Of a stretch of DNA of 64,000 bases, positions 1-9,551 are shown one piece after another. The notes under the pieces were generated by a model. That model ran no database searches and had not been told where the DNA came from. It worked only from the letters and a program-made list of their open reading frames with translations. The stretch's first letter is position 1; each line of letters opens with the position of its first letter. The stretch spans positions 4,208 to 68,207 of the forward strand of contig CAYNYL010000006.1 in assembly GCA_964401485.1 (NCBI GenBank), written 5' to 3'. The stretch is from an uncultured Gammaproteobacteria bacterium (lineage in GTDB: Bacteria; Patescibacteriota; Patescibacteriia; UBA9934). The translations under genes and the position numbers were made by a program.

Positions 1-1009
1 CTGCCGAAACCCATGAGACGACCCAAAACCGCATAACTACTTTTGGCTCCGGCCAGCCCTTTGCTTCAAAGTGGTGGTGGATTGGCGCAACGAGGAAAAT
101 TTTTCGTCCAAAGAGTTTTTTCGAAACAAGTTGGGCGATCGTTGTAAGACCCTCAACAACAAAGACGAGTCCGATAATCGGAAGAAAGAGCGCCGTGTTT
201 GTCAGCATCGCGACAACCGCAAGCGTAACCCCAAGCGACATCGCCCCCGTATCCCCCATGAAAAACCGCGCTGGGTAGATATTAAACCAAAGGAAGGCAA
301 GAAGGGCGCCAAGAACCACCCCGCAAAATCCGGCAAGCTCGTAACGTCCAAGAAGAAGCGCGATAATCGCGTACGCGGCAAACGCCGATGCGAGCGTCCC
401 ACCGGCAAGCCCGTCAAGCCCGTCGGTTTGATTAACGGAAAACGACGTGCCCACAAGAATTAAGATAAACATTGGAATATACCACCACCCGATCGTTACA
501 TCACCAATAAACGGGATGTGTAAAATATCGAACCCGAGTTTTACGAAAAACCACCAAGCGCCAATCGCCGCAATAACGGTATAAAGCGGGATCCGGTGGC
601 GCGCCTTAATCCCTCCGCCATTTCCCCCAATATTCTTTACGTTAAAAAAATCGTCGGCGAGCCCAAGGATTCCGGCGGACACAAGCGCAAACAGCGGAAG
701 CCAGGTTTGACCTCGCGAGAGAATATTCATTTTTGCAAGTCCGGCTTCAGGGACCACGACCACGCAAAGCGCAAAGACCGTCACAATCGCAAGCGTCGTT
801 CCCCAAACAATCACCCCGCCCATCGTCGGAGTCCCCGCCTTATCCTTGTGCAAACTCGCAAAAATCGGCGCCTGCGCCTTATCGCGAATCCGCTTCCCCA
901 TCTTCATCTTATAAAGCACACTCGTAAGAAGCGGCGTCCAAGCGATCGCCACAACGAAAGCAAGCGTCGTAAGAAGAAGGAGTTTCACGATATAGAAAGA
1001 CTCAACCAT
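1..1009 (-). CDS. mraY: Phospho-N-acetylmuramoyl-pentapeptide transferase MraY. N-terminus and core are present; the last ~20 C-terminal codons lie beyond the left edge, so no stop in window (hence absent from the ORF track).
   Basis: Hand translation of the minus strand from the ATG at 1007-1009 gives MVESFYIVKLLLLTTLAFVVAIAWTPLL...KDKAGTPTMGGV...NQTDGLDGLAGG...FMGDTGAMSLG...APIHHHFEAKGWPEPKVVMRFWVVSW. These are hallmark MraY motifs. The reading frame is open to position 1. Confidence 0.85.
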   Translation of the reverse strand, partial: MVESFYIVKLLLLTTLAFVVAIAWTPLLTSVLYKMKMGKRIRDKAQAPIFASLHKDKAGTPTMGGVIVWGTTLAIVTVFALCVVVVPEAGLAKMNILSRGQTWLPLFALVSAGILGLADDFFNVKNIGGNGGGIKARHRIPLYTVIAAIGAWWFFVKLGFDILHIPFIGDVTIGWWYIPMFILILVGTSFSVNQTDGLDGLAGGTLASAFAAYAIIALLLGRYELAGFCGVVLGALLAFLWFNIYPARFFMGDTGAMSLGVTLAVVAMLTNTALFLPIIGLVFVVEGLTTIAQLVSKKLFGRKIFLVAPIHHHFEAKGWPEPKVVMRFWVVSWVSA

Positions 1010-5053: not shown

Positions 5054-5159
5054 TCCCCAGGGTGATCGTTGACCGAAGCGCCTACATATGTTTCAATGAA
5101 TTCATCCCGGATGGCTTTACACGAGCTCCTAGGGTGACGCAAAAATATCCCCAATAGCG

Positions 5160-5173
5160 CGAACATTTGTTCA
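5160..5173 (+). promoter_or_regulatory. Cheo-type SOS box (GAAC-N4-GTTC) upstream of the lexA-MTase fusion gene, embedded in the palindrome ATCCCCAA...TTGGGGAT (5148-5186)
   Basis: Sequence cgCGAACATTTGTTCAga is a perfect match to the Gram-positive LexA operator consensus CGAACRNRYGTTYG. It lies ~105 bp upstream of the ATG at 5277. Confidence 0.55.
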
Positions 5174-5276
5174 GACTGTTGGGGATTTTTTGTTGCCCCT
5201 AGCGTCAACTTTAGTTTTCCACAGGCTCATTCGTGACATGCTTCCTTTTTCGTATTTTTTCGTATATTGTTTGAAT

Positions 5277-6836
5277 ATGAGCAAAAATCGCAAGCATCAA
5301 ATCCTCGAATATATAAAAACCCATATAAAATCGAATGGCGGGTCTCCGACCCTTTACGAGATAAAAAACGGCGTTGGCTTAAAGTCTGTGTCAACGGTAC
5401 ACAAACACATCAAAGACTTGATCAGTGAGGATCTTTTACGAGATGACGGCTTGAATGGATACATCATAACCGCGCACTCAAGCAACACATCTAGTCGCGT
5501 TTCAGTTATTGGAACTATTACCGCAGGTGCCCCTATCGAAGCCATTGAAGACAACGACGATATCGTATGGGTTTCCGATCTACCGGCAAACAGCGATTTT
5601 TATGCATTGCGCGTAGCTGGCGACAGCATGATCGACGAAGGAATCTTCGATGGTGATTTAGTCATAATTAAAAAGCAAACCTCTGCAGAAAATGGCCAAA
5701 CCGTAGTAGCAATTATTGATAATAACCAAGCAACGTTAAAAAAAATATATAAAGAAAAGGGGGTCTTCCGCCTTCAGCCAGCCAATCAGAAAATGTTACC
5801 TCTTTTTAAAACCGAAGTTGAGGTACGCGGCATCGTCTGGTCTGTGATTCGTAATTTTAACAGACAGAAAGTTAATCAATCAAAAATCATACCTACAAAA
5901 GAGTGGCGCACTGTTGATTTATTTGCGGGCGTTGGGGGCATTCGTCTAGGTTTTGAAAAGGTTGGTTTTAGCACTGTATTCGCAAACGATTTCGAAGCCA
6001 AGTGTGCGGAAACATACAATACAAACTTTAAAACAACAAAATTAACAATCGAAGACATCACAAAAATTTCAACCAGTGATATTCCAGACTGCGACTTTGT
6101 TCTCGGTGGCTTTCCGTGCCAAGCATTCTCGATTGCGGGCTATCGTCACGGCTTCGAAGACCTGAAAGGTCGCGGAAATTTATTCTTCGATATAGCCCGA
6201 ATCATACAAGATAAACAACCCACCGGTTTTTTACTCGAAAACGTTAAAAACCTTAAATCTCACGACAATGGGAAAACTTTCAAAATTATAGAACAGACGC
6301 TTAGGGACCTGGGTTATTTTGTAAAAACTAAAATCCTGAACTCAATGGAATACGGTAACGTTCCACAGAACAGAGAACGCATTTATATAGTTGGCTTCAA
6401 GGATCAAAAAAGAGCCTCGCGATTTGAATTCCCAGAACCGATTCCACTCACAAAAACGATCAAGGATGTTTTAGAGGAAAATGTGGATGGGAAATACTAC
6501 TACAACGGCAAACCGCTATATGAACGATTAAAGAACGACGTAAGCGAAGAAAATTCCGTTTACCAATGGAGAAGGCAATACGTACGAAAGAATAAAAAAG
6601 GCGTCTGCCCAACGCTAACCGCAAATATGGGGACCGGTGGACACAATGTACCGATAATCTTTGACGGGCAAGGAATAAGGAAGCTCACGCCACGAGAATG
6701 TTTTAGGATACAAGGCTTCCCTGACAACTACAAATTACCCAAACTCGCCGATAGTGCGCTATATAAACAGGCTGGAAACTCAGTTTCCGTACCAGTCTTA
6801 ACAAGAATAGCCGAGCAAATAATGAAAGTATTATAA
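5277..6836 (+). CDS. LexA repressor (winged-HTH plus S24 peptidase domain) fused in-frame to a DNA (cytosine-5)-methyltransferase. The ORF opens at 5190, but the likely start is MSKNRKHQ at 5277.
   Basis: Residues 1-~200 align along their full length with LexA: ITAGAP (Ala-Gly cleavage site), RVAGDSMIDEGIFDGDLVIIKK (catalytic Ser and Lys), and C-terminal VRGIVWSVIRNF versus E. coli GLAVGVIRNG. Residues ~215-520 carry C5-MTase motifs: DLFAGVGGIRLGF (motif I), GGFPCQAFSIAG (motif IV, catalytic Cys), ENVKNL (VI) and QNRERIYIVGF (VIII). Confidence 0.85.
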   Translation: MSKNRKHQILEYIKTHIKSNGGSPTLYEIKNGVGLKSVSTVHKHIKDLISEDLLRDDGLNGYIITAHSSNTSSRVSVIGTITAGAPIEAIEDNDDIVWVSDLPANSDFYALRVAGDSMIDEGIFDGDLVIIKKQTSAENGQTVVAIIDNNQATLKKIYKEKGVFRLQPANQKMLPLFKTEVEVRGIVWSVIRNFNRQKVNQSKIIPTKEWRTVDLFAGVGGIRLGFEKVGFSTVFANDFEAKCAETYNTNFKTTKLTIEDITKISTSDIPDCDFVLGGFPCQAFSIAGYRHGFEDLKGRGNLFFDIARIIQDKQPTGFLLENVKNLKSHDNGKTFKIIEQTLRDLGYFVKTKILNSMEYGNVPQNRERIYIVGFKDQKRASRFEFPEPIPLTKTIKDVLEENVDGKYYYNGKPLYERLKNDVSEENSVYQWRRQYVRKNKKGVCPTLTANMGTGGHNVPIIFDGQGIRKLTPRECFRIQGFPDNYKLPKLADSALYKQAGNSVSVPVLTRIAEQIMKVL

Positions 6837-6840
6837 ACAA

Positions 6841-7926
6841 TTACTCTATACATCGCCTGATATCTGCGAGCATAATCTCTTCTTTACTTGGTATCATATC
6901 AACGATAGATTTGTGGGCGAAATATTCGTCGAAATCTTTTGACGATCTATCGAGTATTCCGAACTTTATAATATATGCTTTATCAGCCTGCAAGACTATA
7001 TCATTCAGCATCGCTTCGCCCGTGGTAATGATGGTTACGGAGCTCTTGCTATTCTTTATGAAACGTATATTTTGGATGCCGTCAACGTAGATATCCAGCA
7101 TCTTGTGGCTCGCTATAGCGTCCAAAACATTACCATTCCACCGATACAGCCCGTCCCCTTTCGGTGAAATTATATCGGAAAATGGTGTAATTGTTGAAAT
7201 AATTTTTGGGGACCTGGTTTCGCGTATGCGCTCTACATACACCGGGCTCTCCTTTGCAAAACACAGCGTGGAAAAAGACATAAAATCGTTTGCCATGCAA
7301 ACCGTGATAGGCTTAAGAGATCCCAAATTTGTGTTTTGACGATCAATTCGTGCAACCGAAGAGACGTCGCTATTGTCGTTCGATTTTATAAAGACTTCAT
7401 CGTTCATTTTTAAACCCTCATAAACGCTATCGTCGGTTACCGTCTGCTCAAAAAATGGCAAAAGATAGTCGCAATTAAGATTTGTTTCTACCAAGACCAA
7501 ATATTTATGATCGTAGCCCTGATTACGCAAACTTACCATGTATTGAGCTTTCTTGAATGTTTTTACTTCAATTTGTGGTGAGCCCTCGAGGGCGCGCCAT
7601 TCGTTCACGTACTCTACGAATGGTTTTAACTCTGTTCCAACTTTAATTCCAAGAACATCAGGAGCTATACCGGATTCCTTCGGTTTATACTTATAATAAT
7701 CAGAAATTACAGATAAATTGTCCGCTATCTTTGGCAAGAAATATTTATTAAAAATAACACTTTCGGGAATAATGTTGATCCAGCGATCAAAAATACCGCC
7801 TATGTAATCGCTCTTGCCACTCAACCCTCCATACATTCTTCCTCGTTGCGCCAATGAGCAAACAAAGTAGATATACGGTATAACGTCCTCTTTATTGATT
7901 ACTATTTCTTGATTGATTCTCTGCAT
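6841..7926 (-). CDS. Hypothetical protein, candidate Type II restriction endonuclease cognate to the adjacent C5-MTase
   Basis: Lies tail-to-tail with the MTase with a 4-bp gap and shares its low GC. A possible PD-(D/E)xK-like arrangement is present (APDVLGIKVG...SPQIEVKTFKK). No other recognisable family signature. Confidence 0.4.
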   Translation of the reverse strand: MQRINQEIVINKEDVIPYIYFVCSLAQRGRMYGGLSGKSDYIGGIFDRWINIIPESVIFNKYFLPKIADNLSVISDYYKYKPKESGIAPDVLGIKVGTELKPFVEYVNEWRALEGSPQIEVKTFKKAQYMVSLRNQGYDHKYLVLVETNLNCDYLLPFFEQTVTDDSVYEGLKMNDEVFIKSNDNSDVSSVARIDRQNTNLGSLKPITVCMANDFMSFSTLCFAKESPVYVERIRETRSPKIISTITPFSDIISPKGDGLYRWNGNVLDAIASHKMLDIYVDGIQNIRFIKNSKSSVTIITTGEAMLNDIVLQADKAYIIKFGILDRSSKDFDEYFAHKSIVDMIPSKEEIMLADIRRCIE

Positions 7927-7931
7927 ATCAT

Positions 7932-9551
7932 TTACTTCTTAGCCGCTTTTAAAAAGCCGAGGAACAACGGGTGTGGGGACAATGGACGCGACTGGAATTC
8001 GGGATGAAACTGTACGCCAACAAAGAACGGGTGATCTTTCACTTCAACGATTTCAACGAGACGATTGTCGGGCGACGTTCCCGCGATAACAAGACCCGCG
8101 GATTCGAGCACCTCTCTGTAATCATTATTAAACTCGAAACGGTGGCGGTGGCGTTCGCTAATCGAATCGGTTCCGTAAGCCTTTCGCGAAGCCGTCCCTT
8201 TCTTAAGTACGCACGGATACGAACCGAGACGAAGCGTTCCGCCGATCCCGCCCTCCTCAAGTTTTTCTTCTTGATCATCCATTAAATGGATCACCGGCGC
8301 CTTTGTTTTCGGTTTAATTTCGGTTGTTTGCGCGTCCTTAAGCCCGCACACATTTCGCGCGAATTCGATTACGGCGCACTGCATTCCGTAACACAGCCCG
8401 AGATACGGAATTTTATGCTCGCGGACATAATTAATCACCGCAATCTTTCCCTCGATCCCTCGCGACCCAAACCCGCCCGGAATAAGAATCCCGTCGAAGG
8501 TCTTAAGCTCCGCGAGTTTCTCGGGATGTTTTTCATATTCCTCGGCGTTTAGCCATTCAATCTTTGGCATTTGCCCAGTCGCCCATGACGCATGCTTAAT
8601 TGCCTCAAGAACCGAAAGGTACGCGTCGGTCAAGATAAAATCGCCGGTTGAGAAGTACTTTCCAACAACACCGATATGCACCTCTTTCTTCACCGTCGTA
8701 ATCGTCCTCACGAGTTTTTCAAACGCGCGAAGGTCTGCCGGCTTTGATTTCATTTTATATGAGCGCAAAACGGTTTCCGCAAACTTCTGTCGTTCAAAAT
8801 TAAGCGGAACTTCGTAAATAGAACGCGCATTCGGCGCTGTAATAATATGATCCTTCGGCACCCCGCAAAACCGCCCAAGCTTTTCACGTCTCGGTTCGTC
8901 AAGCTCCGCCTCCGAGCGACAAATAATAAAGTCCGGCACAATTCCGACACGATTAATTTCGCGCACGGCGTGTTGCGTCGGCTTTGTTTTCATTTCTCCA
9001 ATCGACGGCGGAACCGGAAGGTAACTTACAAGAATCGTCTTTACCGCGTCCGGATCCTTCATCTTCATCATCCGTAGAGCCTCAAGAAACAGAATATTTT
9101 CATATTCCCCAACCGTTCCCCCGATCTCGATTAACACAAAATCCGCCTTCGCCTTATCCGCGGCGTGTTCAATCCGCGCGATCACTTCTTCCGGTACACG
9201 CGGAACAACCTCGACGCATTTACCGTGATAATCCCCCCGGCGCTCGCGCTCGATCACACTTTGATACACGCGCCCGGTCGTCATGTAATTATCCCGCGTA
9301 ATATCAATATCGAGGAACCGTTCGTAGTTCCCAATATCTTGATCAGTCTCGTCACCGTCAACCGTTACAAACACTTCTCCGTGTTCAACCGGGTTCATCG
9401 TCCCGGCGTCCACGTTCACATACGGATCTATTTTTATCGCAGTAACTTTGTAACCCCGAGCCTTAAGGGTAAGTCCGAGCGCAGCGCTTGACGTCCCCTT
9501 TCCAACTCCCGACATGACTCCTCCTACGATAAATAGATACCGATGTTTCAT
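7932..9551 (-). CDS. pyrG: CTP synthase. Likely start MKHRYLFIVGG at 9551; the ORF extends to 9569.
   Basis: N-terminal GGVMSGVGKG P-loop-like motif and C-terminal class-I glutamine amidotransferase domain (GFGSRGIEGK...LGLCYGMQ...HPEF). Confidence 0.95.
   Translation of the reverse strand: MKHRYLFIVGGVMSGVGKGTSSAALGLTLKARGYKVTAIKIDPYVNVDAGTMNPVEHGEVFVTVDGDETDQDIGNYERFLDIDITRDNYMTTGRVYQSVIERERRGDYHGKCVEVVPRVPEEVIARIEHAADKAKADFVLIEIGGTVGEYENILFLEALRMMKMKDPDAVKTILVSYLPVPPSIGEMKTKPTQHAVREINRVGIVPDFIICRSEAELDEPRREKLGRFCGVPKDHIITAPNARSIYEVPLNFERQKFAETVLRSYKMKSKPADLRAFEKLVRTITTVKKEVHIGVVGKYFSTGDFILTDAYLSVLEAIKHASWATGQMPKIEWLNAEEYEKHPEKLAELKTFDGILIPGGFGSRGIEGKIAVINYVREHKIPYLGLCYGMQCAVIEFARNVCGLKDAQTTEIKPKTKAPVIHLMDDQEEKLEEGGIGGTLRLGSYPCVLKKGTASRKAYGTDSISERHRHRFEFNNDYREVLESAGLVIAGTSPDNRLVEIVEVKDHPFFVGVQFHPEFQSRPLSPHPLFLGFLKAAKK

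Follow-up and report, generated by a model that had tools for sequence, protein, structure and literature searches.

Why should a LexA repressor be joined to a DNA methyltransferase (MTase)? This question is raised by a gene in a 64,000-nucleotide stretch of a Patescibacteriota genome (contig CAYNYL010000006.1, assembly GCA_964401485.1), hereafter the window, in which LexA runs in frame into a C5-cytosine MTase. The gene touches on a long-standing problem, how type II restriction-modification (R-M) systems spare their host during establishment, DNA repair and stress. The known solutions are C proteins, helix-turn-helix (HTH) regions borne on the MTase, and antisense RNAs, none of which senses DNA damage directly; a LexA-methylase fusion would link the SOS signal directly to the balance of restriction and modification. 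What we observe is an intact fusion within a mobile R-M cassette, with conserved cleavage residues and an operator-like repeat that is conserved in the promoters of its orthologs. We think it rather probable that the locus is a mobile type II R-M cassette whose methylase carries a built-in autorepressor, cleavable under the influence of activated RecA, and that this would provide homeostatic control together with a damage-induced boost of methylation.

Is the fusion real? The original prediction had described it as an in-frame fusion of LexA to an MTase and had asked for the junction to be inspected for a stop or frameshift artefact. The gene is a single uninterrupted open reading frame (ORF), three contigs from separate sequencing runs encode an identical 519-aa protein, and at least 120 further ortholog clusters (62-82% identity, 100% coverage) share the same continuous three-domain architecture. 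The fusion is therefore genuine, and a frameshift or assembly artefact between the S24 and MTase domains is excluded. The linker between these domains differs in sequence and length among orthologs, as expected of a real interdomain linker. LexA_DNA_bind, Peptidase_S24 and DNA_methylase were all found above their curated Pfam cut-offs; for example, LexA_DNA_bind (PF01726) matches residues 5-48 with 33.6 bits against a cut-off of 23.7. Among the NCBIfam models, the lexA equivalog TIGR00498 scores 148.2 bits (cut-off 110.95) over residues 4-194, and the protein reaches 347 bits with TIGR00675, the model of the C5-MTase superfamily. An AlphaFold model has three folded domains (predicted local distance difference test, pLDDT, 78.5), with low-confidence segments at residues 67-70, in the LexA hinge, and 195-206, in the S24-MTase linker (pLDDT <50). 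In the winged-HTH domain, S39, T40, H42, H44 and L48 are invariant in the A1 orthologs. The nearest named orthologs come from Candidatus Saccharibacteria and are annotated 'transcriptional repressor LexA'.

Has the LexA part kept the means to cut itself? Residues were mapped onto the sequence of E. coli LexA, whose homology was confirmed by tblastn. The predicted Ala-Gly autocleavage bond is present, A83-G84 aligning to A84-G85 of E. coli. The catalytic Ser was correctly placed in AGDSM (Ser117), whereas the Lys had been sought in the wrong motif: K132 and K133 of 'IIKK' align to H134 and K135 of E. coli LexA and vary freely among homologs, and the true Lys is K155 in ATLKK. On this re-inspection the dyad is not lost, and it is near-invariant in 159 fusions, with Ser in 158 and Lys in all of them; at the scissile bond Gly is found in 158 and Ala in 152. 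The bond and the dyad are kept in 39 of 39 divergent fusions and in about 119 of 120 close fusions, a level matched by 72 standalone LexAs. Six of the 120 close orthologs have Gly or Thr in place of the P1 Ala. Ser, Lys and the scissile-bond Gly persist across fusions that are just 30-40% identical, as they do in bona fide LexAs. Judged by these alignments, the fusion protein is apparently a self-cleaving LexA, its cleavage machinery intact and conserved as strictly as that of genuine LexAs.

The second line of evidence lies in the promoter. The upstream regions of the orthologs cannot be aligned except for the last 45 or so nucleotides, where GCTT-N4-TTTTCGTAT-N-TTTTCGTAT(A) runs into a TATAAT-like -10 element 6-9 nt before the ATG. 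In the window the two copies of the repeat lie at 5247-5255 and 5257-5265, between the -35 and -10 elements (positions -30 to -12), and they are the only exact copies of this 9-mer in 64 kb. The ATG follows the -10 element by 8 nt, hence the fusion mRNA would be leaderless or nearly so. The same repeat occupies the same position at six related loci (L083, L084 and L087-L090). In more distant C5 fusions the repeats are either of TTCGG type, with a period of 11 bp, or TTTTCTAAT repeats, and tandem TTCG-type repeats of 10-11 bp period also precede LexA fusions to beta and gamma N-MTases. Examples from fusions to other MTase classes are two copies each of CTTTCGGT (L092), TTCGGTA (L093) and AACCGAAA (L091), and at L094 ATCGAAA occurs twice just downstream of a perfect TTGACT-17-TATAAT promoter. 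Under a stringent definition a repeat of this kind was found in 11 of 19 promoters and in 5 of 6,543 background windows; the nominal P of about 1e-28 is indicative only and overstates independence, because these loci share phylogenetic history. Changes in the repeat unit are accompanied by changes in the predicted recognition helix. An unfused ortholog (L009) has neither the LexA module nor the repeat, and none was found upstream of the R (restriction) genes. Most likely, then, to judge from sequence conservation, the LexA module binds the tandem repeat and autoregulates the methylase (M) gene; that the LexA part has some regulatory role is very likely, given the conserved operator-like repeat in its own promoter. 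The coordinates of these and the other features are collected in Table 1.

Table 1. Features of the fusion gene, its promoter and the surrounding cassette in the 64,000-nucleotide window
Feature	Position	Strand	Evidence or remark
Inserted mobile R-M cassette, 2,880 bp	5058..7937		About 95%-identical empty-site strains L174/L175; GC profile
Strong hairpin plus U-run, terminator-like	5139..5193	+	RNA fold dG (free energy) -26.2 kcal/mol, z = -6.1
Cheo-box-like palindrome CGAACATTTGTTCA, near-consensus Gram-positive SOS box	5160-5173	+	Loop/stem tip of the hairpin, left arm of the cassette
Inferred promoter of the fusion gene	5238..5268	+	Only block aligning among the unrelated upstream regions of 8 orthologs
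-35-like conserved GCTT block	5240-5243	+	Ortholog alignment
Putative operator, tandem direct repeat TTTTCGTAT-T-TTTTCGTAT, period 10 bp	5247..5265	+	Conserved in orthologs; overlaps the -10 element
-10 element TATATT	5263-5268	+	TATAAT at the same place in orthologs
LexA-C5 methyltransferase fusion gene	5277..6836	+	Single uninterrupted ORF, 519 codons/519 aa
LexA winged-HTH DNA-binding domain	5289..5420, residues 5-48	+	Pfam PF01726, TIGR00498
Recognition helix, approximately SVSTVHKHIKDL	residues 37-48	+	Within the LexA winged-HTH domain
S24 peptidase/dimerisation domain	5505..5837, residues 77-187	+	Pfam PF00717, 90 bits
Ala83-Gly84 autocleavage bond (ITA/GAP)	5523..5528	+	Aligns to E. coli LexA A84-G85
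Codon of nucleophile Ser117 (GDSM)	5625-5627	+	E. coli LexA S119 by alignment
Codon of general base Lys155 (ATLKK)	5739-5741	+	E. coli LexA K156 by alignment
Flexible S24-MTase linker, about 15 aa	5853..5900, residues about 193-208	+	Variable among orthologs; low pLDDT
M.HhaI-like C5-cytosine DNA methyltransferase domain	5907..6827, residues 211-517	+	Pfam DNA_methylase, 318.6 bits
361-aa gene, probable cognate restriction endonuclease, PD-(D/E)XK	6841..7926	-	Convergent to the fusion; motif and predicted fold
P89-D90...E120-V121-K122 catalytic motif of the 361-aa protein	about 7561-7662	-	Invariant in the family

A further element upstream of the promoter deserves a comment. The palindrome CGAACATTTGTTCA resembles a Gram-positive SOS box and was considered as the main LexA operator. 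It was rejected, as it sits at the tip of a stable terminator-like hairpin, its motif is not enriched (GAAC-N4-GTTC occurs four times in the window against 1.9 expected, the other three copies lying within coding sequence) and it is not conserved before orthologs. It may serve as a site for a host LexA. The hairpin itself probably insulates the M promoter from read-through out of alr.

What does the enzyme methylate? The canonical C5-MTase motifs named in the original prediction are all present: motifs I (FAGVGG), IV (PCQ), VI (ENV), VIII (QNRER) and X were found together with the target-recognition region, and the Pfam DNA_methylase match extends over profile positions 2-324 of 324. In the 19 A1 orthologs the motifs are invariant and the target-recognition region nearly so. 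The label 'Dcm-type' proved too specific. Dcm proper can be dismissed, since PRK10458 gives 176 bits against a cut-off of 710, the neighbouring gene encodes a PD-(D/E)XK nuclease and not Vsr, and CCWGG is not depleted; the closest solved structure in a search of PDB sequences is M.HhaI, which aligns end to end with 216 bits. The PADLOC model MTase_II scores 424 bits on the fusion protein.

The probable target is GCNGC, as the partner restriction endonucleases (REases) of orthologs belong to the Bsp6I and NgoFVII families and the target-recognition region is nearly invariant; we take Bsp6I (GCNGC) and NgoFVII (GCSGC) to recognise related sites. The composition of the window is consistent with this specificity. 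GCNGC occurs 101 times against 219 expected, a roughly two-fold depletion (observed/expected ratio, O/E, 0.47; z = -7.9) in which all four variants share; CCWGG, CCNGG and GANTC are not depleted, and control 5-mers are close to 1. GCNGC is also avoided around the fusions in L007, L088 and L089. Two other motifs showed depletions of their own: GGNCC mildly in the window (O/E 0.73, z = -2.7), and CCNGG and GGNCC strongly around L007 (O/E 0.28), which hints at additional R-M pressures in these lineages.

The setting of the gene is that of a mobile R-M system. The cassette has a GC content of 40.6%, within an island of 39-41%, in a genome of about 52%. In strains L174 and L175 the flanking sequences are about 95% identical up to 5057 and from 7938 onwards, and alr is followed directly by pyrG, with 113 unrelated bp (L174:5133-5245) where the window has 5058-7937. 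The cassette is therefore a strain-variable insertion, and it has clipped the last codons of pyrG, changing the encoded C-terminus from ...KAAKGRGN to ...KAAKK. Neither terminal inverted repeats, terminal direct repeats nor a target duplication were found at its ends; without terminal inverted repeats or a target duplication, transposon-like ends are ruled out. The empty-site spacer of L174 contains four repeats centred on GTAC and spaced by about 11 nt (TGTACGAAATCGTACAATTTGTACCAAATGGTACAAAA; L174:5150-5195), which could be a binding array or a recombination hotspot.

Convergent to the fusion lies a gene for a 361-aa protein, probably the cognate endonuclease. This assignment comes from the structure prediction and the PD-(D/E)XK motif: the predicted fold is nuclease-like, and its matches are nearly all nucleases or REases. 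Sequence searches of PDB, Pfam, NCBIfam and PADLOC gave no match, nor was homology to the NgoFVII-like REase of TM7i found. The C-terminal half (residues about 200-340) is confidently predicted to be beta-rich and probably forms a DNA-recognition domain. About 420 homolog clusters exist, all 'hypothetical' and none matched by Pfam; those with a name are from taxa of the candidate phyla radiation (CPR). The family is a candidate new GCNGC restriction endonuclease family restricted to the CPR.

How is the endonuclease expressed? Its gene is on the same strand as pyrG, and its ATG follows the stop codon of pyrG by 5 nt (7926-7934). Because of this start position, and because the gene lacks the operator, it is probably expressed by read-through from pyrG. 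Similarly, the R gene of L090 begins 33 nt after rplK (L090:7759-7793). It seems that R genes are parked behind housekeeping operons and expressed by read-through, with M under its own regulated promoter.

Orthologous fusions stand at unrelated loci in other genomes, each with an ORF immediately after it. In TM7i and L090 the partner is RE_NgoFVII_C, in convergent orientation; in L084-86 it is RE_Bsp6I in tandem, and in L089 RE_Bsp6I is convergent. The partner in L087 belongs to the same 360-aa family as the window's protein, and that in L088 is an unnamed 271-aa ORF. In L009, from Nanosyncoccus, an unfused MTase of 72% identity is accompanied by a tandem ORF of the size of Bsp6I. The existence of this unfused ortholog makes the LexA module an optional add-on to an ordinary R-M system, and LexA-MTase is unfused or absent in some Saccharibacteria. 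Membership of an R-M system, which had been suggested for the fusion, is thus borne out by the adjacent PD-(D/E)XK nuclease, by the known REase families beside orthologs and by the avoidance of GCNGC. Some of the cassettes lie in islands of defence or toxin-antitoxin (TA) genes. Those at L084-L086 (3300-7300) are found among ThsB_TIR, GIY-YIG plus SLFN-type helicase and MazG-like genes; that at L092 (500-7700) is accompanied by AbiEii, HicA and NYN genes, and that at L089 adjoins a serine recombinase and a terminase-like gene.

How might such a system work? Unbalanced R and M activity induces the SOS response, and MTase-borne autoregulation is known for EcoRII, SsoII, Ecl18kI and ScrFI (PMC3874152). 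In the mechanism that we propose, the fusion protein would dimerise through its S24 domain, and the two winged-HTH domains of the dimer would bind TTTTCGTAT-N-TTTTCGTAT over their own -10 element. The methylase would thereby be negatively autoregulated, with high expression in a newly entered, naive cell and throttling once protein has built up. DNA damage, including the double-strand breaks that the endonuclease of the cassette would itself make if methylation lagged, would give rise to filaments of RecA on single-stranded DNA. These would stimulate the cut of Ala83-Gly84 that Ser117 and Lys155 are predicted to catalyse, detaching the DNA-binding domain, so that the promoter would be derepressed and a free S24-MTase enzyme released. 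Methylation capacity would rise just when unmethylated repair DNA or self-restriction arises. In convergent cassettes such as that of the window, where the 3' ends of M and R abut, stronger transcription of M would in addition be antisense to R. In short, the LexA part probably allows the R-M system both to adjust its methylase and to react to DNA damage.

Several points weigh against this picture. We infer binding to the repeat, RecA-dependent cleavage and the direction of the physiological effect from sequence. Inverted repeats are the usual target of LexA, and head-to-tail binding of a dimer to direct repeats would be unusual; the direct-repeat operator GTTC-N7-GTTC of alpha-proteobacteria is an established precedent. 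A consensus promoter scanner made no call for the fusion gene, because the -35 element is weak, and the relatedness of the promoter loci tempers the repeat statistics given above. Avoidance of GCNGC is absent in the hosts L083, L084, L010 and L090 (O/E 0.9-1.06). It is thus heterogeneous between loci and not universal in hosts that carry a fusion, which leaves the specificity and activity of the MTase unproven; the heterogeneity fits a mobile cassette with differing residence times. The sequence covered for recA, which was the window plus 343 kb from related loci, showed no such gene, although RecA is near-universal, and a second lexA was likewise not seen in the window or the related loci. 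Lastly, by analogy with the fragments of E. coli LexA, the S24-MTase fragment could be degraded, in which case the net effect could be the opposite.

Could the LexA part be an autorepressor and nothing else? It would then act as a dimeric DNA-binding and dimerisation unit for methylase homeostasis, RecA-stimulated cleavage would have no physiological role, and the catalytic residues would be kept for structure or for slow constitutive turnover. The operator-like repeat at the gene's own promoter fully accounts for autoregulation, the loci surveyed show no recA, and a few close orthologs (six of 120) have lost the P1 Ala. We nevertheless hold this to be unlikely: a simple HTH would be far cheaper than a LexA of 200 aa, and LexA relatives that do not cleave, such as that of Synechocystis, typically lose the very residues (Ser, Lys and scissile Gly) that are invariant here across fusions of 30-40% identity, as in bona fide LexAs. 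That known MTase-borne regulators need no stress input speaks for the simpler account (PMC3874152). Somewhat less probable again is a damage-triggered suicide switch, in which cleavage would expose degrons, the S24-MTase would be destroyed and the endonuclease would kill the cell on phage infection or severe damage, following an abortive-infection or post-segregational-killing logic. The C-terminus left after cleavage, ...I(A/T)A, does resemble the ...VAA of cleaved E. coli LexA that ClpX recognises, some cassettes lie in defence islands and the window's R gene is probably expressed independently through pyrG read-through. Furthermore, R-M systems act as toxin-antitoxin modules, and several TA systems are controlled by LexA (PMC3874152). 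Yet the same cleavage would derepress the M promoter and replenish the protein, the MTase domain would itself be uncut and still joined to a stable dimerisation domain, and existing methylation lasts for generations, so that loss of the MTase would act slowly.

Two further accounts fare worse. A genuine global SOS repressor that happens to carry a methylase and controls repair genes genome-wide might be supposed from the TIGR00498 equivalog score, from the name LexA given by the Prokaryotic Genome Annotation Pipeline (PGAP) and UniRef, and from the lack of any other lexA in the 64-kb window. This is very improbable for a gene that sits on a strain-variable 2.9-kb insertion missing from a relative of about 95% identity, at a different locus in each genome, and unfused or absent in some Saccharibacteria; its operator 9-mer is found nowhere else in 64 kb, and the fused modules form a clade apart from standalone LexAs. 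Least credible of all is an orphan epigenetic methylase, whose neighbour would be no nuclease and which would regulate expression by methylation and play no part in defence. It is contradicted by the PD...EXK motif, invariant in the 361-aa family, by the matches of the 361-aa protein to almost nothing but nucleases and REases, by the tightly 3'-abutting partner ORF at all loci, recognised REase families included, and by the strong avoidance of GCNGC in the genome of the window. A methylase with a built-in, damage-responsive autorepressor remains the reading that we prefer.

How common is the architecture? The LexA part alone was searched against 1.84 billion representatives. Its best matches are the N-terminal LexA modules of proteins of 300-890 aa, whose C-terminal parts are DNA MTases of four Pfam families: DNA_methylase (C5), N6_N4_Mtase, MethyltransfD12 and N6_Mtase/Eco57I/TaqI_C. 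No other type of enzyme was fused to a LexA module among the matches. In a neighbour-joining tree, which has no bootstrap support and a sampling biased toward the query, all 53 fused modules fall into one clade of 66 sequences and 78 ordinary LexAs lie outside it; the 13 'unfused' members of the clade are mostly 220-280 aa long and probably truncated. The named members come from Saccharibacteria, Nealsonbacteria, the 'Patescibacteria group', an aquifer bin of 2012 and one Omnitrophota. Loci with fusions to other MTase classes also have convergent partner ORFs. For example, L093 (4001-8800) holds a complete type IIS Alw26I/Eco31I-like system, with a LexA-M1 of Eco57I type (N6-methyladenine, m6A), an overlapping C5 M2 and a convergent RE_Alw26IDE. 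Among mobile elements, cultured phage and plasmid collections gave just standalone LexAs, at no more than 40% identity, and IMG/VR gave one fusion-bearing contig, L094.

The statement that no LexA-MTase fusion was known is therefore only half right. The architecture is common in CPR/Patescibacteria, with hundreds of clusters across all MTase classes, and has been in databases since 2012 under the name 'LexA'; no published characterisation was found. Natural fusions are not described in the full-text literature searched, including a review of R-M regulation from 2013 (PMC3874152) and a 2026 preprint on CPR methyltransferases, although Sanchez-Osuna et al. (2017), writing on the SOS regulon of Patescibacteria, may mention them. 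The large LexA-MTase family of CPR/Patescibacteria is thus apparently undescribed. Its sequences point to a form of MTase-borne R-M autoregulation that is widespread yet unremarked in databases.

These results raise a bolder, and quite tentative, possibility: that there is a LexA subfamily, mainly in CPR/Patescibacteria, with the sole job of a cis-acting, proteolytically switchable controller of R-M MTases of all classes (5-methylcytosine, N4-methylcytosine/m6A beta, Dam-like alpha, and gamma). It would read tandem direct repeats spaced by one helical turn, in place of palindromes, and close a feedback loop on self-damage, in which breaks from self-restriction activate RecA, the LexA-MTase is cleaved and more methylase is made. 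If this holds, a sensor of DNA damage would for the first time be part of an R-M system itself, giving type II systems their counterpart of restriction alleviation.

The findings have some practical consequences. Hundreds of 'transcriptional repressor LexA' entries are R-M methyltransferases (PGAP and UniRef apply this label to proteins of 480-890 aa), which could mislead reconstructions of the Patescibacteria SOS regulon and censuses of LexA. The 361-aa partner defines a predicted, so far unannotated restriction endonuclease family of about 420 clusters. Methylation and restriction at GCNGC are a likely barrier to the genetic manipulation of Saccharibacteria. More generally, the repertoire of LexA would be widened by a mobile, single-operator, enzyme-tethered form, by recognition of direct repeats and by a role in genome-reduced CPR bacteria, whose regulatory biology is almost unknown.

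Which known systems does the fusion resemble? Closest in working mode are the SsoII-type C5 MTases (M.SsoII, M.Ecl18kI, M.EcoRII, M.MspI and M.ScrFIA), which carry an N-terminal DNA-binding extension, have an operator in their own promoter and repress themselves (PMC3874152). The fusion likewise has an N-terminal DNA-binding domain and a conserved repeat overlapping its promoter, to which it is predicted to bind. However, the SsoII-type extension is a short (about 70 aa) simple HTH without a peptidase, whereas that of the fusion is a complete LexA of about 200 aa with hinge, scissile bond, S24 peptidase and a potential DNA-damage input. Its putative operator consists of tandemly arranged direct repeats, its R gene lies convergent or in tandem where that of SsoII is divergent, and the same LexA module is also attached to N4/N6 MTases. 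Given the LexA-type winged HTH and S24 peptidase at its N-terminus, the fusion is analogous to the SsoII/EcoRII family and not a member of it. With the family of M.HhaI and the GCNGC MTases (M.Bsp6I, M.Fnu4HI and those of M.NgoFVII type) it shares the end-to-end alignment to M.HhaI and, through its orthologs, the RE_Bsp6I and RE_NgoFVII_C partners. It adds the LexA module and the operator, the partner in the window is of an unnamed PD-(D/E)XK family, and its specificity is a prediction.

Canonical LexA of E. coli or B. subtilis has the same order of domains, Ala-Gly bond and Ser/Lys dyad; the fusion passes the equivalog cut-off and probably shares autoregulation as well. In contrast to this stand-alone core gene of about 200 aa, the fusion is a 519-aa, enzyme-tethered protein on a mobile, strain-variable 2.9-kb insertion, with a LexA module in a clade of its own. 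In place of a multi-gene regulon with a palindromic SOS box we found, within 64 kb, a repeat only at its own promoter. This putative operator is a direct repeat of (T)TTCG(G/T), as opposed to the GAAC-N4-GTTC or CTGT-N8-ACAG palindromes of canonical LexA, and its nearest precedent is again the GTTC-N7-GTTC of alpha-proteobacteria. The C-protein systems (C.PvuII, C.AhdI and C.Esp1396I) are alike in having a dimeric HTH regulator at its own promoter that times M against R, and leaderless regulator transcripts are common among them. In the fusion, by contrast, regulator and MTase are one polypeptide, which proteolysis could potentially switch; the 2.9-kb cassette has no additional ORF, no separate C gene and no palindromic C-box, its repeat being direct.

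Finally, SOS-regulated TA modules (tisB/istR, symE/symR, dinJ-yafQ and yafNO) likewise make addiction or defence responsive to DNA damage (PMC3874152), and the 'restriction alleviation' of type I systems is functionally analogous to a damage-induced protection from self-restriction. The TA modules are controlled in trans, by host LexA at an SOS box, and in restriction alleviation ClpXP degrades HsdR, whereas in the fusion the predicted sensor lies in cis, on the protective enzyme itself.

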